IMG/VR virus record: IMGVR_UViG_2974555854_000001
Span: 16,799 to 80,798 of that record
Strand: one strand, 5' to 3'
DNA from: a virus
Taxonomy: Duplodnaviria; Caudoviricetes
Length of the DNA: 64,000 nucleotides
In this document: in pieces, positions 6,663-54,657 of the stretch
Numbering within the stretch: the first letter of the stretch is position 1
Layout of the letters: each line of letters opens with the position of its first letter
Translations under genes and position numbers: made by a program
The notes under the pieces: model-generated
What the model was told of the DNA's origin: nothing
Databases searched by the model: none
Seen by the model: the letters and a program-made list of their open reading frames with translations, nothing else

Positions 6663-9257
6663 ATGAGTGTAGTCAAAAGCTTTCAAATCAATCTTGACAT
6701 ATCAAAAGACATTAAAAACAATCACTTTTCATTCAATCAAAACGATACAAACACCGCTAAGATCATTGTGAATTTGACTAACAATAAAACACCTATTGTT
6801 TTAACAGGTGCAACAGTACGTTTCGCATTTTTAAAAGCTGACGGAAAAAGAGTTTATCAAAATGCAACGATAACTAATCCAACAGCAGGAGTAGTTGAAG
6901 CATTATTAAGTTCGCAAGTTCTAGCCGTACCGAAAAGAGTCAAAGCAGAAGTAGAAATTTATTTCGATGGTACACAACAAAATACCGTTACTAAGCCATT
7001 CGAATTTACAGTAGAACGATCCATCTTGAGTACAGAAGCTATTCAAAGTTCTGATGAATTCCCTATTATCAATACTTTACACCAAAAATTAGCTGATGTA
7101 ATGAATATCGATTTAACTCAATTAGCTGATGTTGGCGCTTCAATGAATAGTATTCGATCAGACGTTACAACCCTGGATCGTAAAACGGATTGGATTGATG
7201 TACGTGATTACGGTGTTAAAGGTGATGGAACAGGTGATGATGCTGTAGGTATTATTGCAGCACTAGCGATGACCGAAACATTAAAACGCAAAAGGGTTAT
7301 TGTACCTGATGGACTTTATAATATTGGTCAGACTATTGTTGTTCCACGAAGAATACACCTTGATTTAAGTAAAAGTACATTTTTACGGCCCATTAATGAT
7401 GTTAATGTGATCCAGTTAAAACCTGAAGCTCAATTAACAAGTGGCGTAATCGATACAAGACGTTTCACTGGAAGAACATTTACAGATTTCACAAAGGCTT
7501 GTATTTATCTTGATGGTAATGACGTATTCTCACTTTACAACGAATTGCATCAAATCAACGGAATTATGATGTTAGGTGAAGATCATTATTACACAGATCA
7601 GAAATGGACAGGGACAGGGATTAGATTCTATTCCGGTAAGGGCGCTAATGGAGAAGCTAAATTTATTTCATTTGTCAACAGTTCACAATTAGGTATCTTT
7701 AACTTCCAAAAAGGTATTCATTTAGATGTAGATGCTACTATCAAAACTGAAGATGAATGGGCTTGGGTAACAGGTTGTACGTTTGACCAAATAAATATGA
7801 TGAACTGTACACAATCAATTGTATTGAATGGTGATCGTACTGTTCCGCGTGATGTAGGTGGAAATATCTTCACAAACCTTCAAATCCAAATTGAACCTAA
7901 TTCAGATTATGCTATTTATTGCGAAGGTAGTTTTAATCGATTTGAAGGCTTATTTTGGGATTTACAGAAGAACCCTAACCCTAGTATTCGATTTGCTAAA
8001 AGCTCTCGTTTTAACGTAATTAAATGCGCTCACGGCTATGATTCACCACAACACTTTTTGGATGAAGGTTATGACAATACTATTGAAAGTTCAACTAACC
8101 ACACTCCACATAAACGTAACATGGCTTATCCTTTAACGACTCCTTTCAACCCTAGCATGTTAGGAAATCAGGATGATTATATGGTTCGCGGTGATTTACG
8201 TGGATATACTTTCTCTCAAACATCTAGTCATCCGATTAAATACGGCGGTAATATGAAAGAGCTTCTAACACTCGAAATGGAAGTTGGTTGTACATGGGAT
8301 GCAACAAACGCCACTTATGAAAATCCTATTGTATTTGAGATTGATCTTTCTTCTGATCCGATTTGGTACGCTCATTTCATTGGTGTGATTGGGGCCTGGA
8401 AAACAAATCCTAAAGGAGTTAGAATTGAAGCTTTTGATGCTATAGCTAATGAATGGATGTGGTGTCATGAAGTCGATAAGAATAGCAGCTATCCTTTTGT
8501 TGTTTGTGCGCCGTGGGTAGGAATAAGTAAATGTACAAAGATAAGAATTACAATGTGGGGTACAAACGATCCAACAGGAAAAGATGTTCAACTAAGCCGC
8601 GTGTTTGCAATTAGTGGAAAGAACGAAGGTAAAGCTTGGATGCCGAAAGCAGGAGGAAACTTTGATGGAAAAGTTTATACTGTTGGTGGACTTGTTTTAG
8701 ATAAACGTACAAGTGATCCTGCTGATGCTGTTGAAGGTCAAGTTTGGTATAGAACAGATTCAAGTAAAGCTCCTGTTCGTGTTATGACTTCAGAAGGCGT
8801 TAAATCGTTCACAATGCAGTCGATTCCAAATGAATACCTTAACATTGCTGGTGCTGTTAAAAACGGTACAACAGCTGTTATAGCCGAAAATACCGCTGAT
8901 TATTTTAGAGTCACATGTAAAAACAATTCAGACGGTTTAATCATCCCAATGACTAGTGCTGTTGTTGGAAAAACCTATACACTTGTTTTAGATGTGATGT
9001 TACTGAATACAGTAGATGATGTTATACAGGTTCGTTTATATAACAGAACAAAGGCCACTTATTACAATTTGAACTTAGCTGTAACGACAACGGCCCTTAA
9101 CGTCAAACAACGCATAACTAAAAACTTCACGTTCGCAACAGGAACGACTTTCGCCGCTGGTGATGCAATAGAATTATGGATCGTACAATCATGGAAGAAT
9201 AGCACTCACGATACCTTTGAGTACAAAGTGTTCAAAGATACGCTTGCTATTTATTAG
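6663..9257 (+). CDS. BppU-type baseplate upper domain fused to a pectate-lyase-like beta-helix (tailspike/depolymerase)
   Basis: N-terminus F.F.QNDTNTAKI...GVVE...V.AEVEIY typical of BppU/DUF2479; WIDVRDYGVKGDGTGDDAVGI is the Pectate_lyase_3 start motif. Confidence 0.75.
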   Translation: MSVVKSFQINLDISKDIKNNHFSFNQNDTNTAKIIVNLTNNKTPIVLTGATVRFAFLKADGKRVYQNATITNPTAGVVEALLSSQVLAVPKRVKAEVEIYFDGTQQNTVTKPFEFTVERSILSTEAIQSSDEFPIINTLHQKLADVMNIDLTQLADVGASMNSIRSDVTTLDRKTDWIDVRDYGVKGDGTGDDAVGIIAALAMTETLKRKRVIVPDGLYNIGQTIVVPRRIHLDLSKSTFLRPINDVNVIQLKPEAQLTSGVIDTRRFTGRTFTDFTKACIYLDGNDVFSLYNELHQINGIMMLGEDHYYTDQKWTGTGIRFYSGKGANGEAKFISFVNSSQLGIFNFQKGIHLDVDATIKTEDEWAWVTGCTFDQINMMNCTQSIVLNGDRTVPRDVGGNIFTNLQIQIEPNSDYAIYCEGSFNRFEGLFWDLQKNPNPSIRFAKSSRFNVIKCAHGYDSPQHFLDEGYDNTIESSTNHTPHKRNMAYPLTTPFNPSMLGNQDDYMVRGDLRGYTFSQTSSHPIKYGGNMKELLTLEMEVGCTWDATNATYENPIVFEIDLSSDPIWYAHFIGVIGAWKTNPKGVRIEAFDAIANEWMWCHEVDKNSSYPFVVCAPWVGISKCTKIRITMWGTNDPTGKDVQLSRVFAISGKNEGKAWMPKAGGNFDGKVYTVGGLVLDKRTSDPADAVEGQVWYRTDSSKAPVRVMTSEGVKSFTMQSIPNEYLNIAGAVKNGTTAVIAENTADYFRVTCKNNSDGLIIPMTSAVVGKTYTLVLDVMLLNTVDDVIQVRLYNRTKATYYNLNLAVTTTALNVKQRITKNFTFATGTTFAAGDAIELWIVQSWKNSTHDTFEYKVFKDTLAIY

Positions 9258-9268
9258 GAGGGAAAAGG

Positions 9269-9976
9269 ATGTTAACTTTAGTCCACGAAGATATTTGCGT
9301 TTATTTGGATTATATGATTTCGCAAAGTCTCAAGAAGACAGGTAAAAATTTGTCATTCATCAATGATTCAATTGAAGGGATAGCGAATTTAGGTAGGTTT
9401 GAAATCGAAGTGACTCAAGGTTCTTTTGCAAGATTTACGATCACTATTGAATCTCAAATTGTCACATTCAATGTTCCTATGACTGTTGGTGATAAAATAA
9501 GCCTTGACTTAGACAAGAACATTTTTAAAAAGAACGGATCACTGATCTTTACTGACAGCGTTCTTACACTTGAAGACAATTCTTATGTCAATGTGAATCT
9601 TGATTTTGTTGGTGATGGTATCGCTGCTGCAACTTATTTCTACAAATATTATGAGAAGAGAACTGATGATCTTATGTTCGTTGATAGCCTTTCTTATGAT
9701 AGAAGTGTAGAGTATGCTAGTCGTACAAATATCAAAAACCAAAAGAAACGTATTGGAAAGTCCAGGGATACATTTAGTTTCTCTATAAGTTTGATTTGGA
9801 ATGAAGATCAAGCTGAACTGATCGATGATGAATTCCGTTTACGTCTTATTGATGAAGAAGGTTATCCAATCGAAACAATGGCTGGATGTGTTATAACTTC
9901 CGAACGCAAAGGTTCTTCTTCAAATGGTGGAGATTTCACTTACGAAATTTCAGGAAGTTTTGAAAAAATTTATTAA
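9269..9976 (+). CDS. Two-domain tail protein whose C-terminal half resembles the tail tube protein
   Basis: C-half aligns by eye with 2205..2711 (DSLSY/DSFSF, RDTFSFSIS/RQEYTFDIS, ISGSFEK/ASGSYSK). Confidence 0.5.
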   Translation: MLTLVHEDICVYLDYMISQSLKKTGKNLSFINDSIEGIANLGRFEIEVTQGSFARFTITIESQIVTFNVPMTVGDKISLDLDKNIFKKNGSLIFTDSVLTLEDNSYVNVNLDFVGDGIAAATYFYKYYEKRTDDLMFVDSLSYDRSVEYASRTNIKNQKKRIGKSRDTFSFSISLIWNEDQAELIDDEFRLRLIDEEGYPIETMAGCVITSERKGSSSNGGDFTYEISGSFEKIY

Positions 9977-9983
9977 ATAAAAT

Positions 9984-10013
9984 GAGAAATGCATTCCAAA
10001 CCCTTGTATTAAT
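9984..10013 (+). promoter_or_regulatory. Putative late promoter GAGA-N19-TATTAAT (copy 4)
   Basis: Exact motif. Confidence 0.65.
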
Positions 10014-10050
10014 GGATTCAGAACGGAAAAGTTCAATATTTTTTTAATTA

Positions 10051-10524
10051 ATGGAGGGTTTTGGAATGGCAAAGGTTAATAAATTCGCAAGCAAGGTAAA
10101 GAAATTAAAACGTACAGGTAAGGTACACTTCAATACTGATGAAGGTGAAGTGTTGGAATTCGCTATCGAATCACGTAAAAGTGAAGATATCGATACAATT
10201 AACGGAATTTATGATGCTAAAAAACCAAAAGTACCAACTCGCAAATTACCATCTGCAAAAGGTTTCAAAGTTGTGGAGCAGCATGACGATCCGGAATACA
10301 AGAAAGAACTTGGTGTTATTCAACGCCGCAACCTAGCACATCTAGCTTTAATGTTTTTAGCTGAAGATGAAAGACCTGAAGGCGAAGTTGAAGAACAAGT
10401 TCAACAAATTTTAGACATTGAACTAGCTGGATTCATCGGTAAAATTGTTAACAAAGGTCTTGAGATTTCAGGTCTTGGTGGCGATGACGAAGAAGAAGAG
10501 TTAGTTGAAGTAAAAAACGACTAG
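10051..10524 (+). CDS. Tail assembly chaperone (gpG-like)
   Basis: 157 aa, acidic end; slippery heptamer A AAA AAC at 10512-10518 just before the stop. Confidence 0.75.
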   Translation: MEGFGMAKVNKFASKVKKLKRTGKVHFNTDEGEVLEFAIESRKSEDIDTINGIYDAKKPKVPTRKLPSAKGFKVVEQHDDPEYKKELGVIQRRNLAHLALMFLAEDERPEGEVEEQVQQILDIELAGFIGKIVNKGLEISGLGGDDEEEELVEVKND

Positions 10525-10715
10525 CAGTAGGAGGGAAATTGAAAGAGGGCGTTTATGACGATTACATTTACTTAGATATTTGTGAAAAGTACGGAATGAA
10601 CCCACTCACTGAATTCGATCCCCTACCTGATGACATAAAAATAATGATGAAAGCCAAATGGTTAATTGACCAGGAACACAATTCTGAAATGGCTAAGAAA
10701 CAAAGTGAGGGGTAG
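10518..10715 (+). CDS. -1 frameshift extension of the tail chaperone (gpGT-like)
   Basis: The -1 frame is open for 65 codons (RLAVGGKLKEGVYDDYIYLDICEKYGMNPLTEFDPLPDDIKIMMKAKWLIDQEHNSEMAKKQSEG) and is followed by a terminator hairpin. Confidence 0.75.
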   Translation, partial: RLAVGGKLKEGVYDDYIYLDICEKYGMNPLTEFDPLPDDIKIMMKAKWLIDQEHNSEMAKKQSEG

Positions 10716-10760
10716 GGCTTATGTCTTACCTCTCATTTTTTATTTATAGGAGGTGCTTTT

Positions 10761-11219
10761 ATGAGTCTAAGAAGAAAGAAATCCACCTTACAATTATTCC
10801 GCGATGACATTAGACAAAATATCGAACGTGAAGGATCAGCTGTTGTTTTTGAATGGACTGAAGTAACCGGCGCTGTTTGGAATGATGTTTATGAGGTTTG
10901 GGAGGGTGGAGAAGAAACGAAGCAATTCTATCACGAAAGAGGAATAGGTAAGATCATCGATTACAAAGAAGACATTATGGAATCAGAATTTGCACGTTAC
11001 AACGTAGGTGAGTGTATTGTTCGTTTCGTTTATGATTCTCCTATATTTGACGTTTTAAGTGGAAAGAGTGATGTAACATTCATCTATCAAGGACAACGCT
11101 TTAAAATCGATTCTCCGATGTATACAGGTGATATGATCGACAACGGATACTACGCTTTAACTATTCGTGGTGTCAAGGATTACGATGGAGCTGTTAGTCA
11201 TGATACGAATGAAGCTTGA
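10761..11219 (+). CDS. Head closure/head-tail joining protein
   Basis: 152-aa beta-barrel-like protein (FIYQGQRFKID...YYALTIRG). Confidence 0.55.
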   Translation: MSLRRKKSTLQLFRDDIRQNIEREGSAVVFEWTEVTGAVWNDVYEVWEGGEETKQFYHERGIGKIIDYKEDIMESEFARYNVGECIVRFVYDSPIFDVLSGKSDVTFIYQGQRFKIDSPMYTGDMIDNGYYALTIRGVKDYDGAVSHDTNEA

Positions 11220-11676
11220 TACAAAAGCAACTGAAAACCTTGTCCAAAAATTAAAGCTGCTGCAAAAAGAAATTCTTCAGGAAACAAACAGTGTTGTTAA
11301 TGACCTGGATCGTAACCTTGCTGAAACGTATGAACGTTCAGTAGACGAATTAGTTTATGACCAATACACTCCTGAAAAATATCAACGAACACTTCATTTA
11401 CGTGGTGCTCATGGTGCTTTACAAAGGGACATTCAATTAGTTGGTTATAAAAAGAATTACACATTTCGTATTGATGGTAGTAGTCGCGATCCGATTGATG
11501 GTGAAACATGGGATACAAAAGCTTATAACGTTGAACATGGCACAACTGAAATGAGTGTAGGTTTCAATCGTCCTTTCATTGCTCCTACTCAAACAAAATT
11601 AGAATTCGAAACTGAACGATTACGGAAATATTACATTGAACGTATTCGCGGTTTTGTTAGAAAGGCGGCGAAATAA
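11167..11676 (+). CDS. Tail completion/neck protein (HK97 gp10-like); probable start ATG at 11200
   Basis: YQRTLHLR, NVEHGT and RPFI motifs typical of the gp10 family. Confidence 0.65.
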   Translation: MVSRITMELLVMIRMKLDTKATENLVQKLKLLQKEILQETNSVVNDLDRNLAETYERSVDELVYDQYTPEKYQRTLHLRGAHGALQRDIQLVGYKKNYTFRIDGSSRDPIDGETWDTKAYNVEHGTTEMSVGFNRPFIAPTQTKLEFETERLRKYYIERIRGFVRKAAK

Positions 11677-12137
11677 TGGCAACGTTTGACCAGGAAAAAT
11701 ATATCGAAAGTGTTAAAGCGGTAATAATCGGTTATCTGAAAGGTCTGTTTCCGGATTATAAAATCGCAACTGCTTTTCCTGATGTTGAAGGTACTGACTT
11801 AGATTTAAGTAAACCTATGCTTTACGTTGAATTTGAACGTGAATCAAACATCGAAAGAAGAAGGGGAAAATGGGTAGGTGATGACAGCTATCAACGAAGA
11901 GTGACGGTTGTTTATTCTATCCAGGTTTTTACAAGTGGTGATGGTAAGGGTGTATTAGCTAGAGATCGTACTATTCAGACATTAAAAGTCGATGTACCTA
12001 GAAATGAAAGAGTTTTCGCTGGTCAGGGCTTACGTAAAGTTGATATGCGTTTCATGGGTTCTTATCGATTAAGAGAGCGAATTCATCTAGCTAGGATGGA
12101 AGTTTTTACACAAGTAACAATGACTACAATCATGTAA
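11676..12137 (+). CDS. Tail terminator protein
   Basis: 153 aa, position before the tape measure gene, gp17/gpU-like pattern. Confidence 0.55.
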   Translation: MATFDQEKYIESVKAVIIGYLKGLFPDYKIATAFPDVEGTDLDLSKPMLYVEFERESNIERRRGKWVGDDSYQRRVTVVYSIQVFTSGDGKGVLARDRTIQTLKVDVPRNERVFAGQGLRKVDMRFMGSYRLRERIHLARMEVFTQVTMTTIM

Positions 12138-12152
12138 AGGTTGGTGGATTAG

Positions 12153-15100
12153 GTGTCGGATCAAATTAAAATTAGTTTTGAAGTTGATGGTGAGGAACTA
12201 AAGCAGATAACACAAGCTATGAACATTTTGGACAAGTTTAACAAACAAGCAAAAACTGTTGTTGATGGTCTAAATGGTATGGGTACATCAATGAATGGTG
12301 TTGGTCAATCCGCTAAGAATCAAAAGAACTCCATCGAAAATTTAGATGCTGCAATGCAATCGTGGTCTAATAAAATTAAGGGCCAACAAAAAGAAATGCT
12401 GCAACATTCACAAACAGCTAAAAGAATGGCTAACACTTTAAATCAATTAGGTTCTGATGCTAAAGTAACTGCTGATTCTGCTGGACGTTTATCTGCAACT
12501 TTCAAAGATATGAATGGTAATACAGTTAAGATGTCCGGTACTGTTCAACAATTGAATAGTCAGATCGGACAAATGAAAACAACAATCACCGCTACTTCTT
12601 CTGCTGTAACTGATTCAAATAAACGTTTAGCTGCAATGAATAAAGAACAACAACAACTAGCTAAAGCTATGGCTGATGGACGTTCTAAATTCGATAATCA
12701 ATCGAAAGCTGTAAGTAAATTAGCTCAAGATTACGATAAGCTTCACACTGGAACTCGTGACTTATCTAGGGTTTTAGCTGATAACAAAGGTAAGTTCGAT
12801 GTCTATAATAACGCATTGCAAAAAGGTAGTCAAATCATGAAAGCTTCAATTGATGCTCATGGTAAGTTCTCTCAAACGTTGAAGAATGAACAGGGCCAAT
12901 TAACGACTATTTCAGGTTATTATGACAAGAACAATCAACGGATCACTGAATACAATCGTAGCATTGTGAAATCTGCTGATGCAATGGGCCGTGCAAGTAA
13001 ATCAGCTAATAAATATCAAGCTGAATTGATGGGCCTTAATAAACAAGCAAAAAGTTTCGGTGAGTCACTTGAACATTCAGCTACTAAGATGGTTGAGTGG
13101 GGCGCTGCTGGTGCTGTAGTATTTGGTATCCAGGATGCTTTCAGAGGTCTAGGCGCAACTATCCTAGAAGTAGATACCCAAATGACTTCATTACGCCGTG
13201 TGCTTGACGATGATGTTGATATGGGTAAATTGTTCGATGGTGCTGTTCGTAATGCTAGTATCTTAGGTATCAAATTAACTGACATTAATGAAGCTATGAT
13301 TGAGTTCGGAAGACAAGGTTTCGATGATAGTGAAATTGAAAAGTTAGTTAAAGCAACAGGTATGATGAAAAACGTTGCTGATATGGATATGGGTATGGCT
13401 TCTGAAAACATGACTGCTTTCCTCGCTACATTCAAACGTGGTGTAGATGACACAATGGAATATGTTGACAAATTGAATGAAGTTGATAACAAGTACGCTG
13501 TAAGTGTAGACCAGCTATCTAACTCTATTCGAAAAGCCGGCGGTACTGCAAATGCTTTCGGTGTTTCTATGGATATGGTAATCGGTTATACAACAGCTAT
13601 CGGTGAAGCGACTCGTGAAAGTGGTCAACAGATCGGTAATGCCCTAAAGACAATTTTTTCCAGGGTTACAACATTAGGCGGTGCTGAAAAAGTATTAAAC
13701 AATGTTGGTATCGCTGTTAAGAATCAGGCCGGTGAAGCTCGTAAAGCTGAAGATATTTTCGGTGATCTTCATAAGGTATGGGGCGATTTAACGAATGCTG
13801 AAAGACAAAACATCGCGTTAAAAGTTGCCGGTACTCACCAGGTCAATAGATTTCTTGTTATGATGCAAAACTACGATCAAGCTTTAAAAGCGGCTAAAAC
13901 TGCTGAAAACTCATGGGGATCAGCTCAACGTGAAAATGCTAAGTACATGGAATCATTACAAGCTAAATTAAACAACTTATGGTCTTCATTACAATTAGCT
14001 GCTGTAGCTGCTGGTGATGCAGGATTAACTAAAGCGTTTAAAGTCCTTATTGAAACGACTAATACTTTAGTACAAGGTGTGCTAGGTATGGGAAAAGCAA
14101 TGGGAGATTTTGCTTTATTATTACCGGTGATTGCCACTGGATTAGGCTTGTTCACATTTAACCTTATGAAAATGAAAACTAATGCTGATCTTGCTGTAAT
14201 TAGTTTAAACACTGTTGGTACTGCAACACAACAAATGGCCCTTAAAATGGGAGCTTCTACAACTGCTGCAACTATTCTAGGTGGTGCTGTTGGACGTATT
14301 ACCGGTGGTATTAAAGCAATGACATTAGCATTAGCAACAAACCCTTTCGCTATTCTATTAACTGCTGCTTCTGCAATTGCATATTTCGTTGGTCAATCTA
14401 AACAGATGGACGATCAACTTAAATCTATGCAAGGTGGATTTAAAGATGCTACTAAGGAATTCAAAGCATTCCAGGAAGCAATTGCCAATAAAACTGTAGA
14501 TGAATATTCTGTTAACAAATACAAGACTCAAGTAGATATGTTAAAGGATTCAACAGTTCTATTGAATGGTGTTATGAAAGATGGAGTTAAGGTATATGAG
14601 CAACAAAATAACAGTATGGTTGCAATGAAAGCCGGTACTGAAACAATGGGTATGAGTCAGGCCCAAATGAAGAAGCATTATGCTGAAACTACACTAGCTC
14701 GTAAAGCCCTTTCCGAAGAAGAAATGACATCACTTACAACGTTAGGTATTTCAATCAAGAAGAATACAACGTTAGCTGATGTTGTTAATCAAGTTAAGAA
14801 TCGTCAATTGGATGTTTCCGGTGCTGTAAAAGATGCTGGCGATGCAATGAAGAAAGCTGATAAAGAAGCTATCACTCCTGCTATTGATGCTTATGGTGAC
14901 TTAAATGATGAACTAGATAAAAACGCTACTCTAATGGAGAATGCTATTGGTTTCTCGAATAAGTATATCAAATCCATCAAAGAACAGATTGGTGTAGTTG
15001 AATTATTATCAGGTCAAGAAAATTTAAGTAAGGCCCAAAAAGACCTTCTTGAAATGTCTACTCGTAACTTAACTGAAGCGTTTGGAGATCAGAATGATAC

Positions 15101-30602: not shown

Positions 30603-30758
30603 TCATTCACTCTCCTGGACTTCAAAATAATAGTTATTAGCGGCTACATAAAAGCCATTCATAAATGCTGTATATAAATCAAATGGATTTTGAACTGTTG
30701 TTACAGCTAGCAATCCATTGAGATAACCACGTTTAAAAGCAATCATATCGTACATCAT
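30603..30758 (-). CDS. Small hypothetical protein (51 aa), not in the ORF track
   Basis: Overlaps the sigma gene stop and abuts the thyA start; MMYDMIAFKRGYLNGLLAV... Confidence 0.55.
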   Translation of the reverse strand: MMYDMIAFKRGYLNGLLAVTTVQNPFDLYTAFMNGFYVAANNYYFEVQESE

Positions 30759-31456
30759 GCTATCACCAAATCAAAATGTGCTGCTGCTTTTGGTCTGATT
30801 CTTTTCTTGATGATACGACTAACATGTGCTTGACTGATGCCTAATCCTGCTGCAATTTCCTTCTGACCTTTATCCTGGATAAGTTGCTCAATTATGTACT
30901 TCTCGTTGTCAGGTAAAGTATCGAAGAATGCGTTAACTTCAACCATTGAATAGTCTTGTTTGAATCCGAAAAACGTTGATAAAAGATCATCTTCACTATC
31001 ATCAGCGAATACCGGCTTGTCCAAACTTTTAACAGTCATATTCAACGAATAATTAATTGCATCGTTAACTTCTTTTTCAGTTAACTTTGTGTCTTGCATA
31101 ATTTCTTTAACTTCTTTTTCGAAAGAACTTTCTCTATTGATTTTAGAAAAATGTTCTCTTACGTGACGTGGGTAGCGGATAGAAGTTGTTCTCTCCCTAG
31201 CCCAATGAAACCATTCGCCCATCATAACCTGAACAGCGTATGTTGAAAATTTAACGTCCGGTTTTTTGATCGGATCAAATCTAGCACAAGCGTTTAATAA
31301 ACCGATGCACACAACTTGCTCAATGTCTTCCTTTGAGTAGTTAGTGTGATTTTCGTCCTTAATCCAATATCCAGCTAATTTTTCATTCATTACGAAACCA
31401 ACTAGACCTTTGTTTTCTGCAAATAAAGCGTTTCTTTCCTCAATTGATCTTAACAT
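30755..31456 (-). CDS. RNA polymerase sigma factor (diverged SigF/SigG/SigB-like)
   Basis: Region 2 EDIEQ..CIGLLNACARFDP...FSTYAV; region 4 QKEIAAGLGISQAHVSRI; sigma-A promoter TTGAAA-17-TATAAT upstream. Confidence 0.88.
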   Translation of the reverse strand: MLRSIEERNALFAENKGLVGFVMNEKLAGYWIKDENHTNYSKEDIEQVVCIGLLNACARFDPIKKPDVKFSTYAVQVMMGEWFHWARERTTSIRYPRHVREHFSKINRESSFEKEVKEIMQDTKLTEKEVNDAINYSLNMTVKSLDKPVFADDSEDDLLSTFFGFKQDYSMVEVNAFFDTLPDNEKYIIEQLIQDKGQKEIAAGLGISQAHVSRIIKKRIRPKAAAHFDLVIA

Positions 31457-46257: not shown

Positions 46258-46480
46258 TAAGGTTTCCCCCCTTTGTTCGTTACTAAAAGTTACTTTATCA
46301 TTATAATACAGAATTGAAATAAAACAAGCCCCTTTATCACATTTGTATTAATTTTGAAATATTTCTCGATTTTTTGTAATGGTACGTGCAATATTTAGAT
46401 TATCGCCCATATATTAGGATTATGAAAAGGAGTTATTAACTACTTAACAACTTCTTCTCACCTACTTAATAAGAAATGGA

Positions 46481-46756
46481 GTGATTAGCTTGTCTAGCAA
46501 GTACATCCGAAAACCTGTAGTGTTCAATCGTGAATCAGCTTGGCATATGAACATCCTGGAACGTATTGAAGGTGAATCGAACAACTTTTCCGGTTATGTA
46601 ATGTCTATCCTTAAAGAACACTTTGACAGAAAGTTGCCACTTGAGCCAATTATTAAATCTGATCCAGTAAAAACAGAAAAAGAGCAACCGAAATCAGCTG
46701 CTCCTTCCTTCCAAAAACCTGTTAATAACACACCGCCAAAATTATTTGGAAAATGA
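46481..46756 (+). CDS. Putative ribbon-helix-helix-like DNA-binding protein with disordered tail
   Basis: RKPVVFN (strand) followed by NFSGYVMSILKEH (helix). Confidence 0.5.
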   Translation: MISLSSKYIRKPVVFNRESAWHMNILERIEGESNNFSGYVMSILKEHFDRKLPLEPIIKSDPVKTEKEQPKSAAPSFQKPVNNTPPKLFGK

Positions 46757-46854
46757 ATCGTGGTACTTGCAATTTTTGAATATGAGTAGCATAAACTGTT
46801 TGTGTAACTGAACTTGTGAATGGAGCAAACAGTTTAAATACCACTTCATAGTCA

Positions 46855-46920
46855 TTAAAACGGCCATAACCCCACTAATAAGCCTGTTAACCCAATGCTA
46901 ATTAAGATTGCTTCTACCAT
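46855..46920 (-). CDS. 21-aa hydrophobic micropeptide MVEAILISIGLTGLLVGLWPF, not in the ORF track
   Basis: RBS GGGAGTG and a consensus sigma-G promoter upstream. Confidence 0.6.
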   Translation of the reverse strand: MVEAILISIGLTGLLVGLWPF

Positions 46921-46952
46921 CTTTAAATCACTCCCTTAATTGTTGTTGAACT

Positions 46953-46982
46953 TAGTATGTACGCCTTGTTCAAATCCTATTC
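46953..46982 (-). promoter_or_regulatory. Sigma-G (forespore) consensus promoter GAATA-N18-CATACTA
   Basis: Matches the Bacillus sigma-G consensus GHATR-18-CATAHTA at every position. Confidence 0.65.
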
Positions 46983-47001
46983 ATGAAAAGGAGAATGACA
47001 A

Positions 47002-47106
47002 ATGTTTTCATTTTTGAGTGTCGCTGGTATGTGGATTGTGTGGCATACTGTTGGAATTCCTGCTTACATCAAATACATTAAAAAATTGGAGGAAAACAAA
47101 AAATGA
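47002..47106 (+). CDS. 34-aa single-TM peptide, not in the ORF track
   Basis: RBS AAGGAG; MFSFLSVAGMWIVWHTVGIPAYIKYIKKLEENKK; ATGA overlap with the next gene. Confidence 0.65.
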   Translation: MFSFLSVAGMWIVWHTVGIPAYIKYIKKLEENKK

Positions 47107-47573
47107 AAAAATATGAAGTGATCCCATTCAATCAGTTTATGACAGGTGAATATATGGAGCTTGAAGCTATTGTGAAAAACCAATATACAGAAAAAACAAT
47201 CAAGAAATTGCAAAAATTATCTGTATTCTTATGGTCAGTGAGTGCATCGTTTACAGCTAAAGCGGCTAGTGCTGCATCAACGGCGGCAACAGCTGGTAAT
47301 GCAAGTCAATCGTTCGGATTATGGTCACATACCACTGGATTATTTGGAGTATTTCAGGAAATGGCAATGGTTTTAGGAGCGCTTGCAATATTTGGTGGAC
47401 TAATCACAATGATCTTCAAAAAACGTGCTGGTCAGAAAATAATTTTAACAGCGGCAATTGCTATCGGTGGTTGTTTCCTTGTACCATCAGCGATTATGTT
47501 AGTAGCAATTATCGGTAATATGTTGAACGATACCTTATCACAAGCATTTTCAAGTATGACAATGGGGAGGTAG
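47103..47573 (+). CDS. Membrane protein with TrbC/VirB2 pilin-like topology
   Basis: Ala-rich AKAASAA processing-like stretch, then two hydrophobic helices split by a basic loop (FKKRAGQK). Confidence 0.55.
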   Translation: MKKYEVIPFNQFMTGEYMELEAIVKNQYTEKTIKKLQKLSVFLWSVSASFTAKAASAASTAATAGNASQSFGLWSHTTGLFGVFQEMAMVLGALAIFGGLITMIFKKRAGQKIILTAAIAIGGCFLVPSAIMLVAIIGNMLNDTLSQAFSSMTMGR

Positions 47574-47577
47574 TTAA

Positions 47578-47718
47578 ATGATTAAGTTTGTTATTGGAGC
47601 GTTCATTGGATTTTCTGTAGGTTTTGGTATGGCCCTATCGTACCTTGTTGAAGCTTCTGATTCATCTATGCTTATTAAAACAATTTCAATTGTGAAGGGA
47701 GTTCTTGAAACGTTATGA
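47578..47718 (+). CDS. 46-aa single-TM peptide, not in the ORF track
   Basis: RBS GGGAGG; MIKFVIGAFIGFSVGFGMALSYLVEASDSS...; ATGA overlap with the ATPase gene. Confidence 0.65.
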   Translation: MIKFVIGAFIGFSVGFGMALSYLVEASDSSMLIKTISIVKGVLETL

Positions 47719-50204
47719 AAATTACCTTAAATTCCAGGGAAAGTAAGCCATTAGATAATCCACAAATGGTTATGAAGGAGAAATTAACGTTGGGATCGCC
47801 TAAAAATGATCCCCTGCTTCTTCCTGTTGCTGTTGAACCTAAGTTACCAATAGTAAGACCTTCAACAGATGTAAACGTCAATGTGCGCCAATTTGAAAAG
47901 CCTGAAGCTAAACAGAAGAAAAAGATAACTTTACCATCCATTAATTTTCAACTAGCCGAACCGATGAACACAACTTTCTCTGTAAAGCCTGTTCCTACAA
48001 CGGATAATGAAAAGATAAACGTATTCATAGAAGCATTTGCAAATACTTACAAAGAATTTTTTAATCAAATCCGGAATTTTTCGTACGATGATAACGGTTT
48101 GTCTATACCTCAACAGGATAAAATCTTTATGGAAACAGTCATAGACAATAAAAAAGTACAGCAATTTATTACAACCAATGAGCACCAGGAAGAATATGTT
48201 GAACAGCAAATAGGTTTTACATGGTATAAGGCACAAGTTTTGAAGCAACATAAGGAAGTTATTGACTTTGATGTGAATAAATCGATCATTTATGAGTTCA
48301 ATTTGAAATTCACACCGGCCCTAACGTTAAAGCCACACGAAAAACTGTCTGATAAGATGCTCCGTGACTTCCTTGAGCTTAGTAAATTGTTCAAAGATGA
48401 CGAAAAAGCTCTGATCCAGTTCGGATTTCAACCATCAGAAAATGATTGGTATAAGGAAGGTAATGTTCAACTAAAGGACTTACCAACTAAAATCAAGAAG
48501 AGTGAGTACAGCACTAATAAAATGGGCTATTCAGCGTTTGATTGTTGCTTGAGACTCATTGTTCAAAGTGATGATAAAATACGCTTAGAAACAATCTCAC
48601 GCGGTTTAGTCAGTACGTTGAAACGTTTAGAGTACGACAATGAATTAATCGCCAAACAAGTCAAACCAAAAAGAATCAAATCATTCTACAAACGTAAAGT
48701 ATTGGGCCGCAAAATAGATGTTCCTTTATCATTCAGAAAGCGATTCATTTTAACTAACAAGGAAATAGCACACTTTATCGTACTTCCGAACAGATCATTG
48801 CAAAAGGATTATCACCTAGAAGTGGATGAAAAAGGTGTGACAACTGTTCATAAAAGCTTCTTATCCGGTAAAGGCTTGTGGTTAGGTGATGTAACGGTCA
48901 AAGGCAATAACAAACAATTCCGTATTCCAACTGAAGAACTGGATCAGCTTTGTGGAACATACGCATTTGTTGGTGAACCGCGTTCAGGTAAGGATATGAG
49001 TTGTTCACGTTTCATTATAGAATTAGCTAAAAAGGGCCACGGTGCAATTGTTCCTGATGCTATTGATGAAGCAGGGCGCGGTATGGCAGATATTATTAAA
49101 CAAAATGTACCGGCTAGTAGAATTGTTGACATTGATCTTGCAGACTTCAATAATCCTGTTTATTTCGGCCTAGATGACATTGTAGATGCAATAGGTATAA
49201 CAGGCATTGATGTTGTCGCAAACGATCTTGTAGGGATATTAGAGCTTGATAAGAATTATACTTCAAAGCAATTAGCACGATTAGTAGCTAAAGCGTGTAA
49301 ATGTAACCTATATGAAATGTTTAATTTCCTGAAGTCAGATAAATACGCACGTAAAATCCAGGAACGTGTATTAACTGAAGGTAATGAGCTTCTACATTTG
49401 CAATTAGAAATGGAATATTTTCAGACTACAATTCAAGCTAATGTAAGAGGGGCCGTTATTAATCGTCTTGATGAATTATTATCTATGTCTATCATGAAAA
49501 ACTTATTTGCAGCAAGGTCAAATCCTAAATTCAACCTTCAGAAGTTTATCGAACAGAATAAAATCGTTCTGATCCGCATGAAAAAAGATGGTGGATTAGG
49601 TGAACAAGGCGTTAAGATCATGATGAACCTAGTGCTGTTGAAAGTTAGTTGGTTAAAGAAAATCAAACAAACTGATAACGTGACGTTCCTTGTATTCAAT
49701 GAATTCCACCAATACGCTACTGAAACATTCAATGAAACGTTAAGCTCTTTAATCCTGGAAAGTCCGAAATATCGCTTGGGTATCAATCTAATATTCCACA
49801 CACCAAACAAGATTGACCGCAAATTGTATGAATGTATTCAGTCAGGTGCAAAAGGATTGTTCCTATTCAAAAACGGAAATCTAGGCATATTCAGGGATTT
49901 GTTCGAACGTATTAAGCCGCTAGATGTTGAAGCTTGTTTGAAAATTAAACGTCACGAGTCGATGTATTTGAGCAACGTTGAAGATGCTGAACCATTTTTC
50001 ATTAAGATGCATCCAACAGATAAATTTGACACGAGTTATAGGTCAGTCAAGGAAACAGAAAAATACGGAACAAAAGCTTCAATCGTTAATTCTGATATCT
50101 TCCAGGTTGAGAAGTGGATGTATGAACCTGAACCCGAACCTGAAGAAAAAGAAGAAAAAACTGAAGAAAAACCGAAAAAATCCAAAAAATCTAAGAAAAG
50201 TTGA
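47715..50204 (+). CDS. VirD4/TraG-like (HerA/FtsK superfamily) ATPase
   Basis: Walker A GEPRSGKD (about 48972), Walker B variant FLVFNEFH (about 49698), and ES.KYRLGINLIFH resembling the coupling-protein E.RKYG...L..Q motif. Confidence 0.72.
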   Translation: MKITLNSRESKPLDNPQMVMKEKLTLGSPKNDPLLLPVAVEPKLPIVRPSTDVNVNVRQFEKPEAKQKKKITLPSINFQLAEPMNTTFSVKPVPTTDNEKINVFIEAFANTYKEFFNQIRNFSYDDNGLSIPQQDKIFMETVIDNKKVQQFITTNEHQEEYVEQQIGFTWYKAQVLKQHKEVIDFDVNKSIIYEFNLKFTPALTLKPHEKLSDKMLRDFLELSKLFKDDEKALIQFGFQPSENDWYKEGNVQLKDLPTKIKKSEYSTNKMGYSAFDCCLRLIVQSDDKIRLETISRGLVSTLKRLEYDNELIAKQVKPKRIKSFYKRKVLGRKIDVPLSFRKRFILTNKEIAHFIVLPNRSLQKDYHLEVDEKGVTTVHKSFLSGKGLWLGDVTVKGNNKQFRIPTEELDQLCGTYAFVGEPRSGKDMSCSRFIIELAKKGHGAIVPDAIDEAGRGMADIIKQNVPASRIVDIDLADFNNPVYFGLDDIVDAIGITGIDVVANDLVGILELDKNYTSKQLARLVAKACKCNLYEMFNFLKSDKYARKIQERVLTEGNELLHLQLEMEYFQTTIQANVRGAVINRLDELLSMSIMKNLFAARSNPKFNLQKFIEQNKIVLIRMKKDGGLGEQGVKIMMNLVLLKVSWLKKIKQTDNVTFLVFNEFHQYATETFNETLSSLILESPKYRLGINLIFHTPNKIDRKLYECIQSGAKGLFLFKNGNLGIFRDLFERIKPLDVEACLKIKRHESMYLSNVEDAEPFFIKMHPTDKFDTSYRSVKETEKYGTKASIVNSDIFQVEKWMYEPEPEPEEKEEKTEEKPKKSKKSKKS

Positions 50205-50270
50205 CTTTAGTTTAACTTGAATTACCCTACTGTTTTAGTTGGTGTTGAACTTAAAAGGAGGTAGTTGAAC

Positions 50271-50417
50271 ATGAAAAAGCTACATTGGTGTGCGGTTTGT
50301 CACAAATTTGAAGAGGACAAAGAAAACAAAAAAGTCTACCCTTTCAATCCTGAAATCGAATATGTGATTACGCCTAGAATTTGCAATAAGTGTAAAAGAA
50401 AGAAGGTGAAGAAGTGA
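50271..50417 (+). CDS. 48-aa zinc-finger protein, not in the ORF track
   Basis: RBS AAGGAGG; CAVC...CNKC. Confidence 0.65.
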   Translation: MKKLHWCAVCHKFEEDKENKKVYPFNPEIEYVITPRICNKCKRKKVKK

Positions 50418-50485
50418 TTCATTTAATCGCTTTATCCTGGATCATTTATATAGCGAAAGAGCAATTAAAAAAGCCTTCCAAATAG
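50414..50485 (+). CDS. Possible 23-aa hydrophobic peptide
   Basis: GTGA overlap with the previous stop; (V/M)IHLIALSWIIYIAKEQLKKPSK; runs into a terminator. Confidence 0.35.
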   Translation: MIHLIALSWIIYIAKEQLKKPSK

Positions 50486-50498
50486 GAGGGCTTTGTTT

Positions 50499-52794: not shown

Positions 52795-54657
52795 TTAAAG
52801 ATACAGTTTTAATGTACCTTGCAGCTTTTCAATCTTATCGTGAAGCATTTTAACTTCTTCCTGGTGAACACGATCATTTGCACTAACTTTATCTAAGAAG
52901 TCATCGAAGTTCTTATTCATTTCTTTGTGTTTTCTAGCTAGAATATCATTAGCTTCTTCGAATGCATCAAGTGTTTTCTGCTTGTTATCATTGCATTCAT
53001 AAGCTTCTTCCAGCTCTTTTTTGTATGAAAGAACAGCTACTTCTAACTCATTAGCACGTTTTAATTCTTCTTCATACAAACGTTTATATTCAACAGCTTC
53101 ATTGTAAGCACGTTGACCTTCTTCTTCAAGATGATCGTAACGTTCAGATAGTTGGTGTTTTTCCTTCAACACACGCTCATATGATTCATTACGTTGCTGG
53201 TAATCAGCTTCAAGACTATCGTTTTTTCGATGAAGACATACAACTTCTTCTTTTAATCGAACGTTTTCTTCAGATAAATCACGACAAGCAGCAGAAACAT
53301 CAGCGTTGACACGTTTAGAATCAGTGAGATTTTGAGCTAATTTATCACGCTCAATACGAACAGCTTCAAGTTGTTCTTGTACATATTTAACGTTGCTATC
53401 TTTATGTTTGATTGCGGTTTCAAGCTGATTGATAACTGATTCTTTTTCAAACACCTTGTTTTCCCACGTTTCGTTTAAAGTAGCAACAGCTTCTTCGTAA
53501 GAAATGTGTTTCTGATCCGCTTGTTTCTGAAGACGTTTAATCTCCTGGTCACGAGAAGATACTTGCTGTTTGTAACTTTCAACTGTTTGCTCAAGATCAG
53601 TGATAACCTTGTCCATTTTACTTACTTGTGAAGCTGAAGTAGCCGGTTTAATAGCAGTAGCCATCATTTTCTTTTTATCCCCCTGTTTTTTAACACCTTT
53701 AGCACCATTTGAAATCTTAGCCGCCATTGCAGCATCAGTTAAACCATTTTCTTTCTTCCAACCATAATAAACAGCGTTATTAAGTTTGAAATGACGTTGA
53801 ATTTTACCGTTTGAATTACCTTCATTACGCATTTTGTGATAAATTTCAACAGTTAATCCATTCAAAGGTTTTTTTGCGTTAAACATAACAACAACACTCT
53901 CCTGTTTGATTTTTTTAGGCTTGGACTTTCTAACTTGTGGTGCTCTCTCTTTCACTACGTTGTCGAATTGGCCCTGACCTTTTAGATATTTTTCTAACAG
54001 CGGCTTAACTTGATTTTTGATAATTCGAGAAACCTGAACTTGTGAAATCCCTAATGCTTTTCCTATTTCAGATTGTGTTCTATTATCCATCACAAGTTTA
54101 ACCACTATTGCAGCACGTTCATCCAACGTTTCCAGGAACTCATTTACGAAAGTGTGTGAGTAATCGTCATGTTCGCCAATCATATCCGATATTGTTAGCG
54201 GATCACCGTCATTTTCGTAAACGGTTTGTTCTATGGATGAAGGAGTTCGTACCTTCATAAAATATAATAACTCGTCTACTTCCGATAAGTCAAGTTCTAA
54301 TTTCTCTGCAATTTCTTCACGACTCATACCGTCACATTCATTGTATCGAAATTTGCTATGCAATTCCTTTAAACGTCTAGGAGTTTTTATTGTTCCATCA
54401 TCACGGATAAAACGTTGTATCTCACCTATCATCATAGGAACAGCATATGTTGACCATTTAACACCATAACTATCATCAAAACGATCAAACGCCTTCATGT
54501 AACCCATAGCTGCAAGTTGGAACAGATCATTAGGATCATAACCACGATTGTTAAAGCGCTGAACAACAGACCATATAAGGCGTAGATTACGATGCACATG
54601 TTCTTCTTTATTTTCCAAAACACCTTCAATCATATTTTCCTGCTTAGACAAAATCAT
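52795..54657 (-). CDS. sigF: SigF-like sigma factor fused to an HTH-like segment and a long coiled coil
   Basis: LIWSVVQRF.NRGY.P.DLFQ, STYAVPM.IGEIQRFIRDDGT, TVYENDGDP and TQSE...LGISQVQVSR match Bacillus SigF; about 370 extra residues follow. Confidence 0.88.
   Translation of the reverse strand: MILSKQENMIEGVLENKEEHVHRNLRLIWSVVQRFNNRGYDPNDLFQLAAMGYMKAFDRFDDSYGVKWSTYAVPMMIGEIQRFIRDDGTIKTPRRLKELHSKFRYNECDGMSREEIAEKLELDLSEVDELLYFMKVRTPSSIEQTVYENDGDPLTISDMIGEHDDYSHTFVNEFLETLDERAAIVVKLVMDNRTQSEIGKALGISQVQVSRIIKNQVKPLLEKYLKGQGQFDNVVKERAPQVRKSKPKKIKQESVVVMFNAKKPLNGLTVEIYHKMRNEGNSNGKIQRHFKLNNAVYYGWKKENGLTDAAMAAKISNGAKGVKKQGDKKKMMATAIKPATSASQVSKMDKVITDLEQTVESYKQQVSSRDQEIKRLQKQADQKHISYEEAVATLNETWENKVFEKESVINQLETAIKHKDSNVKYVQEQLEAVRIERDKLAQNLTDSKRVNADVSAACRDLSEENVRLKEEVVCLHRKNDSLEADYQQRNESYERVLKEKHQLSERYDHLEEEGQRAYNEAVEYKRLYEEELKRANELEVAVLSYKKELEEAYECNDNKQKTLDAFEEANDILARKHKEMNKNFDDFLDKVSANDRVHQEEVKMLHDKIEKLQGTLKLYL

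Follow-up and report, generated by a model that had tools for sequence, protein, structure and literature searches.

We propose, as the best and a moderately probable explanation overall, that a plus-strand cassette at positions 46481-50485 of the phage DNA analysed here encodes a reduced machinery of VirB2/VirB4-like type, akin to the inner-membrane core of type IV secretion systems (T4SS). This DNA, hereafter the window, is a stretch of 64,000 nucleotides (nt) from IMG/VR record IMGVR_UViG_2974555854_000001: bases 16799-80798 of the complete 80,798-bp genome of a Slashvirus-like Bacillus (Priestia) megaterium siphophage with direct terminal repeats. The cassette is the Slashvirus copy of a known, functionally uncharacterised module, genes 31-32 of phage SPP1, and we are highly confident of its identity as an SPP1-type VirB2/VirB4-like module. 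A membrane-associated, ATP-driven complex that joins a VirB4-like motor to a VirB2-like subunit is supported by the evidence laid out below.

The largest product of the cassette is a divergent VirB4-like ATPase of 829 amino acids (aa), encoded at 47715-50204 on the plus strand (PHROG 5156, E = 3.5e-264). A disordered segment (residues 1-76) is followed by a VirB4-type N-domain (about 77-376) and a P-loop domain (about 377-772) with Walker A GEPRSGKD (420-427) and Walker B FNE (661-663). The preliminary description, made from the letters alone, had correctly seen in it a P-loop ATPase with this Walker A motif; its membership of the FtsK-HerA superfamily is supported. No Pfam or NCBIfam model matches the protein at E up to 1, and searches of PDB sequences by phmmer and with the close-family profile returned an adenylate cyclase and an immunoglobulin domain, both rejected as chance matches.

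The subfamily was assigned from predicted structure. With an AlphaFold2 model based on 21 homologues (predicted local distance difference test, pLDDT, of 81), Foldseek placed full-length R388 TrwK/VirB4 first (E = 1.5e-14, about 860 alignment columns). The C-domain (377-772; VIA-align) is closest to VirB4 of T. pseudethanolicus (4ag6; Z 28.7, root-mean-square deviation (rmsd) 3.1, 332 residues), and aligns with FtsK chains at Z 18.4-18.8 over about 210-220 residues. Since the C-domain alone cannot settle the subfamily, residues 77-376 were modelled separately (pLDDT 91.7). Compared with 48,161 representative chains, this N-domain found TrwK/VirB4 at Z 15.3 (rmsd 3.6, 246 of 300 residues), the next match standing at Z 8.3; the ten best Foldseek matches were all TrwK (E = 7e-6). 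As modelled, the ATPase is thus VirB4-like by fold in both domains, and it is not a VirB4 member by sequence.

It had initially been read as a VirD4/TraG-like coupling protein or FtsK-type DNA pump. We abandon this assignment: both domains match VirB4, and hydropathy reveals no N-terminal membrane helix, the sole segment reaching a lowered threshold of 1.4 being internal (493-511). Pfam models T4SS-DNA_transf, TrwB_AAD_bind and FtsK_SpoIIIE do not match the ATPase either. In T4SS, VirB4 energises the assembly of the machine and of its pilus and is not itself known as a DNA pump.

Known VirB4 proteins (R388 TrwK, 7o42, 7o43 and 8rtd; T. pseudethanolicus, 4ag5 and 4ag6) share with the window ATPase the two domains, a length of about 800 aa, the lack of membrane helices of their own and a gene placed directly after small membrane proteins in VirB2 and VirB3 positions. 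Unlike them, the window ATPase has Asp in place of Ser/Thr in Walker A and Asn in place of Asp in Walker B; its sequence identity to them is about 10%, without a Pfam VirB4 match, and it is carried by a tailed phage rather than by a conjugative element. VirD4/TraG/TrwB and FtsK/SpoIIIE belong to the same FtsK-HerA superfamily, with C-domain Z-scores of 25.4 for TrwB and 18.8 for FtsK, and two very distant relatives of the ATPase (P0023 and P0024) match TrwB_AAD_bind. From these the window protein differs in its N-domain, which is VirB4-type and not a membrane stem, and in having no relaxase partner in the genome.

Residues G420, G425, K426 and E663 are invariant in 68 family members, the catalytic Glu being kept. 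The clade around the source phage pairs Walker A GxPRxGKD with Walker B NE, whereas all other family members combine GK[ST] with DE: among 144 members, 38 carry the first combination, 106 the second and none a mixed one. The change resembles a compensated exchange of the two Mg-binding positions, and such a pair argues for an active enzyme.

Three small membrane proteins are encoded upstream of the ATPase, all on the plus strand. The first is a 34-aa peptide with one membrane helix (47002-47106; PHROG 21171, E = 4e-29), which has a ribosome-binding site (RBS), AAGGAG, and homologues in the related loci L008 and L007; its stop codon overlaps the next start (ATGA). The second, of 156 aa (47103-47573; PHROG 13699, E = 1e-73), shows the VirB2/TrbC pilin topology recognised from the outset. 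Its leader, some 55-65 residues long, terminates in a conserved AFA/AxA site, at which the protein is presumably cleaved, and two strong hydrophobic helices (87-105 and 119-137 in alignments and hydropathy) flank a short basic loop, FKKRAG.

TrbC (PF04956) is reached below threshold by SPP1 gp31.1 (E = 0.1) and by the protein in the same position of a distant locus, L011 (E = 0.0028), in both cases over nearly the whole model. For the 156-aa protein, the Atlas points to TrbC, T4SS_pilin and DUF4134 clusters with scores of 0.82-0.85, which serve as leads only. WD40 matches of its family profile to PDB sequences were discarded as spurious, and a homologue search from the gp31.1-like protein of a Desulfotomaculum prophage yielded three proteins only, none with a Pfam label. 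In locus L007, on a contig of 127 kb, the gene after the ATPase homologue encodes a protein of 453 aa that belongs to no known family, and a gene for a Peptidase_A24 (prepilin peptidase) comes next (12777-14925); the VirB2-like protein of that locus carries the AFA site and lacks a type IV prepilin motif.

The third protein, a peptide of 46 aa (47578-47718; PHROG 16518, E = 4e-28), has a membrane helix at its N-terminus, ends in an amphipathic tail and is conserved in five lineages. Because it occupies the VirB3 position and its gene is translationally coupled to that of the ATPase by an ATGA overlap, it is likely, by analogy, to bind the ATPase and serve as its membrane anchor.

Kinship with SPP1 is evident at two genes. 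The ATPase is homologous to gp32 (tblastn 2e-42; 25% identity, residues 259-785) and the first protein of the cassette to gp31 (BLASTP E = 3e-7). SPP1 genes 31, 31.1, 31.2 and 32 and their homologues in Geobacillus phage GBK2 follow the same order, in which a small protein of DNA-binding type comes first, membrane proteins next and an ATPase of roughly 830 aa last. The likeness of gp31.1 to the 156-aa protein is one of pilin-like topology, with leader, two helices and short loop. The second membrane protein measures 46 aa in the window phage against 105 aa (gp31.2) in SPP1, and the window clade has in addition the 34-aa peptide and an antisense gene of 21 codons. A Desulfotomaculum prophage keeps the same arrangement (ribbon-helix-helix (RHH) protein, small transmembrane peptide, VirB2-like protein, second transmembrane protein, ATPase), with membrane proteins of the SPP1 type.

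A trans-membrane translocon has already been proposed for SPP1 gp31.1, gp31.2 and gp32 (Godinho et al. 2018, PMC6316719). In the same work, the gp32 C-terminus resembles TrwB, VirB4 and FtsK by HHpred, the module is expressed as an early gene, and genes 31.2 and 32 are non-essential, the module being dispensable for laboratory growth (PMC6316719). We found no functional study of the module in the literature beyond this SPP1 genome paper. The possible minimal DNA-translocation machine of the preliminary description stands as a self-contained, T4SS-derived cassette; its ATPase had been placed in the wrong subfamily, and the translocon idea had been published for SPP1 before (PMC6316719).

Of the inner-membrane parts of a T4SS, the phage has only the proteins in VirB2 and VirB3 positions. 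Pfam models for VirD4 (PF02534), VirB6/TrbL, Replic_Relax (PF13814) and actin-like partition proteins found nothing in the whole 80.8-kb genome, and no open reading frame (ORF) in it has four or more predicted membrane helices. Unlike in a T4SS, VirB6, VirB8, VirB1, VirD4 and a relaxase are all missing; the observation that the window holds no relaxase and no full T4SS extends to the entire genome. Archaeal Ced and Ted systems import DNA with a VirB2-like pilin and a VirB4/HerA-like ATPase, without relaxase or coupling protein. They differ in being cellular and in including a polytopic VirB6-like membrane protein, absent from the window phage.

Several results weigh against a VirB2/VirB4-like core. 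None of the six cassette proteins matches a Pfam, NCBIfam or PADLOC model at threshold. C-domain Z-scores for DndH-C (27.7), HerA (25.8) and TrwB (25.4) lie within about 3 of the value for VirB4, and a profile of 68 family sequences finds HerA (1e-5), DptH (6e-5) and TrwB (2e-4), while VirB4 4ag5 appears only at E = 0.26: sequence profiles put the ATPase in a HerA/TrwB/DptH group without favouring VirB4, and assign it no more narrowly than to the HerA/VirD4/VirB4 part of the FtsK-HerA superfamily. In Pfam, the 156-aa protein lacks a TrbC match of its own, and its sequence shows no detectable similarity to SPP1 gp31.1. Finally, TrbL/VirB6 models and hydropathy find no VirB6-like polytopic protein in the phage genome, and known VirB4 machines need such a protein to handle VirB2.

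We suggest the following mechanism, tentatively and with less confidence than the identity of the module. The ATPase would oligomerise on the cytoplasmic side of the membrane, where the co-translated 46-aa peptide in the VirB3 position would hold it. ATP could then be spent to pull the processed VirB2-like subunit from the bilayer, or to build an oligomeric conduit or short fibre; this assembly step is modelled on the action of VirB4 upon VirB2 in conjugation machines. The gp31-like protein would most likely repress or tune the operon, and may also mark phage DNA. The exact mechanism is uncertain, because there is no VirB6-like partner.

The gp31-like protein opens the cassette (46490-46756, plus strand; PHROG 21197, E = 7e-59). 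Both the RBS and the extent of the PHROG match (residues 4-91) favour translation from TTG 46490, giving 88 aa, rather than from GTG 46481, giving 91 aa. Its FN...FSG motif is conserved in six lineages. Signals of an RHH fold come from DUF3408 (E = 0.076), from Atlas leads that all belong to the RHH clan with scores of at most 0.84, and from a CopG_antitoxin match (E = 0.007) of the Desulfotomaculum protein in the same position; against PDB sequences, the family profile found no solved RHH structure and nothing else of use. An RHH fold is plausible and unproven, and the protein is probably a DNA-binding protein of this class, predicted to act as operon regulator or DNA adaptor.

Upstream of it lies what appears to be a divergent regulatory region (46258-46489), 95% identical among the window phage, Staley and Slash, compared with 86-89% for the whole cassette, and better conserved than the genes on either side. 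Plus-strand matches to sigma-A promoters are weak there; one candidate, TTGTAA-N16-TAGATT, ends 88 nt upstream of the first gene. A generic sigma-70 scan gave no more sites than shuffled sequence (21 against 18.8). The divergent region also holds the palindrome ATTATAAT, which could be a -10 element for both directions.

A sixth conserved gene, overlooked in the preliminary description, runs antisense within the cassette. This micro-gene (46855-46920, minus strand) has 21 codons and encodes the hydrophobic peptide MVEAILISIGLTGLLVGLWPF. The peptide, its 21-aa reading and its RBS are kept at seven loci (the window, Staley, Slash, L008, Basilisk, L012 and L007), despite DNA that is hard to align among them; in Basilisk it is annotated as gp98, with 24 aa from an upstream start. 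The SPP1-type and SPO1-type cassettes scanned contain no such micro-gene.

Between the convergent gp31-like gene and micro-gene lies an inverted repeat with 11-nt arms and a 23-nt loop (46792-46836). Both arms covary in Staley and Slash and in L008, and the minus-strand RNA fold scores z -3.25 in the window and -3.77 in L008, without a U-tract. The repeat may be either a 3' hairpin of a minus-strand transcript or a palindromic operator.

The micro-gene is preceded by a sigma-G consensus match, GAATA-N18-CATACTA (46953-46982, minus strand), which ends 32 nt before its start codon and is retained in Staley and Slash although the spacer changes. A sigma-G or sigma-F consensus stands 29-36 nt upstream of the micro-gene in four of five lineages (the Slash group, L008, L007 and L012), where chance would give about 0.003 per 100-nt upstream region and lineage; the exception is Basilisk, with no forespore-type motif upstream of its micro-gene. 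The whole phage genome has two sigma-G matches, this one included, against 2.6 expected. Such a motif, not enriched genome-wide, is not a general phage promoter type. No sigma-E, -K, -G or -F site was found upstream of the plus-strand genes at six loci. Among the phage's own products are two SigF/G-like sigma factors (window 30755-31456 and 52795-54657), of which the second continues, as a fusion, into a long coiled coil; these could read the forespore-type motif independently of host sporulation.

The module is widespread among phages of one kind of host. The ATPase finds 99 phage records by tblastn, including SPP1 gene 32, GBK2, SPO1 gp27.4, CP-51, SP-10 and the Basilisk group; a profile search of 1.84 billion representative proteins retrieves 1,268 clusters with E <= 0.001, of which 132 reach E <= 1e-30. 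Three queries, the window ATPase and two distant relatives, matched 99, 145 and 128 phage records. The carriers are phages of endospore-forming Firmicutes, both Bacilli and Clostridia (Bacillus, Geobacillus, Lysinibacillus, Brevibacillus, Alicyclobacillus, Clostridium and Terrisporobacter), with no phage of Staphylococcus, Streptococcus, Lactococcus, Listeria or Enterococcus among these matching records. There are two exceptions: the records of D6E, a thermophilic phage of the deep sea, in which no host is stated, and one record named 'Microcystis phage MaeS'. The latter encodes an ATPase 71% identical to that of the window and is Slashvirus-like in genome size (79,995 bp), so its cyanobacterial host label may be wrong. 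A search of bacterial genome contigs for related loci gave three, too few for a survey of bacterial hosts.

Partition genes are frequent neighbours. Immediately before the module stands an actin-like (ALP_N) gene in SPO1 (gp27.9; L015, 209-5719), in D6E (ORF22; L016, 362-4506) and in L007 (7484-12763), and a TubZ-like gene in L004, a Niallia prophage (7673-12382), and in L012 (3744-8253). In SPO1, a Replic_Relax-family gene, gp27.3, directly follows gp27.4. The distant member at L011 adjoins a TraG/VirD4 gene, a Replic_Relax gene and the protein matching TrbC at E = 0.0028. Through such TraG/VirD4 and Replic_Relax neighbours, the family reaches into plasmid and conjugative-element contexts, and the partition gene and module, with Replic_Relax in SPO1, look like a block for plasmid maintenance and transfer inside phages.

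A different explanation adapts the forespore idea of the preliminary description to a VirB4-like ATPase. The machine would be built in an infected cell already entering sporulation and, with a 21-aa peptide made in the forespore, would help phage DNA or a phage protein to cross or dock at the sporulation septum, so that more phage genomes are entrapped in spores (virospores). The near-restriction to phages of endospore formers, the sigma-G/F consensus upstream of the micro-gene and the actin-like and TubZ-like neighbours all agree with it. In addition, virospore formation occurs with SPO1, and for its gene 27.9, which immediately precedes the module, a role in entrapment has been proposed (PMC12991052). 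The plus-strand genes themselves, however, lack a sigma-E/K or forespore motif at six loci, Basilisk lacks it before the micro-gene, and SPP1- and SPO1-type loci lack the micro-gene as well. The phage sigma factors could read the motif, yet it is not enriched; VirB4 proteins are not known to pump DNA; and the host restriction could reflect gene exchange within one phage pool. Altogether, hosts, micro-gene promoter motif and partition genes lend circumstantial support to the forespore idea, and a link to sporulation is possible and unproven; translocation of this kind we consider unlikely. A more elaborate form, a two-compartment device for spore entry with the machine in the infected sporulating cell and the 21-aa peptide supplied from a sigma-G/F promoter in the forespore, would explain both the endospore-former phages of the ATPase family and the frequent partition-gene neighbours, and appears to us rather doubtful.

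The complex could also serve superinfection exclusion or defence at the membrane, blocking or expelling the DNA of competing phages in the infected or lysogenic cell. PHROG 13699 carries the category 'moron, auxiliary metabolic gene and host takeover', the module is early and non-essential in SPP1 (PMC6316719), and temperate relatives carry it beside the repressor/integrase region, in Niallia beside a PvuRts1I-like restriction enzyme. Such a role is nevertheless improbable: there is no PADLOC family match, the module is kept in many strictly lytic phages (among them SPP1, SPO1 and CP-51), an 800-aa two-domain ATPase with a processed pilin-like protein exceeds the needs of known exclusion proteins, and the link to partition genes would be left unexplained.

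Least probable, to the point of being hard to credit, is membrane anchoring or positioning, with the gp31-like protein binding phage DNA and the ATPase and its membrane partners tethering the replicating or partitioning genome to the membrane, together with actin-like or tubulin-like filaments where present: adjacency to actin-like (ALP) or TubZ genes in five independent loci, the place of the L007 gp31-like protein directly after the ALP gene, as for a ParR-type adaptor, and the SPO1 Replic_Relax gene just downstream speak for it, but Slashvirus keeps the module without an ALP gene and without TubZ among annotated cassette neighbours, a processed, secreted pilin-like subunit would be unnecessary, and no centromere-like repeat array lies near the cassette.

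The layout of the locus fits a single transcription unit that runs counter to its surroundings. As first described, it is a plus-strand island among minus-strand genes, flanked on the left by ribonucleotide reductase and on the right by an integrase and a sigma factor; all six plus-strand ORFs were recovered at their coordinates, and both ATGA overlaps (47103-47106 between the 34-aa and 156-aa genes, 47715-47718 between the 46-aa and ATPase genes) are borne out. The nearest relatives of the phage are Staley, Slash and Stahl of the genus Slashvirus, with 86-89% nucleotide identity in the cassette, and Staley and Slash annotate the same five plus-strand genes at the corresponding site, with the ribonucleotide reductase genes on one side and the integrase on the other. 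Five of the six ORFs match PHROG families (E = 4e-28 to 3.5e-264). Because they have such matches, and with Staley and Slash annotation and conservation in distant cassettes alongside, the 34-aa and 46-aa ORFs are to be regarded as genuine genes, as had been suspected, and not as chance ORFs.

The ORF without a PHROG match is the last one (50271-50417, plus strand), of 48 aa and Zn-ribbon-like, with a CxxC...CxxC pattern. It lies within the transcription unit and has a good RBS, which is better for the 48-aa form from ATG 50271 than for the alternative start at 50265. It yielded no tblastn match in 50,697 phage records, and is not found at the same position in Staley. The Zn finger seen earlier is present as an ORF, and, having no homologue in those records, is judged a local passenger or orphan, no conserved part of the module. 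In the Niallia prophage, an unrelated Zn-ribbon ORF of 62 aa (8850-9038) lies just upstream of the VirB2-like gene.

A terminator-like hairpin with a T-run (50470-50494, plus strand) probably ends the unit; Staley has a terminator annotated at the equivalent place. A search around the cassette for iteron-like or centromere-like repeats gave short two-copy matches only. In Slash (L002, 7415-9906), the ATPase is annotated as two ORFs of 551 and 240 aa (Slash_94 and Slash_95) with a 113-nt gap; tblastn spans residues 1-803 almost continuously, so the gene has been frameshifted, recently broken or misread in sequencing. Splitting of this gene by an HNH endonuclease was considered and rejected: the HNH gene lies 3' of the ATPase gene, and the division into two ORFs resembles the effect of a frameshift or of a sequencing error. 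In Stahl, the nucleotide match ends at query position 2549, which makes the 3' half mosaic.

By itself, the window contributes one more copy of the module and a few details: the covariation of Walker A and B, the antisense micro-gene with its forespore-type motif, the host pattern and the partition-gene neighbours. Few conserved gene sets without a known function are as widespread in Bacillus phages as this module, and its presence in the model phages SPP1 and SPO1 makes it genetically testable at once. Tailed phages have retained in it a cut-down conjugation core, a pilin-like subunit with a VirB4-like motor, without the remainder of the machine. Should the association with endospore-forming hosts and the forespore-type promoter be borne out, it would become the first candidate machinery for spore entry by lytic phages, an ecologically important question.

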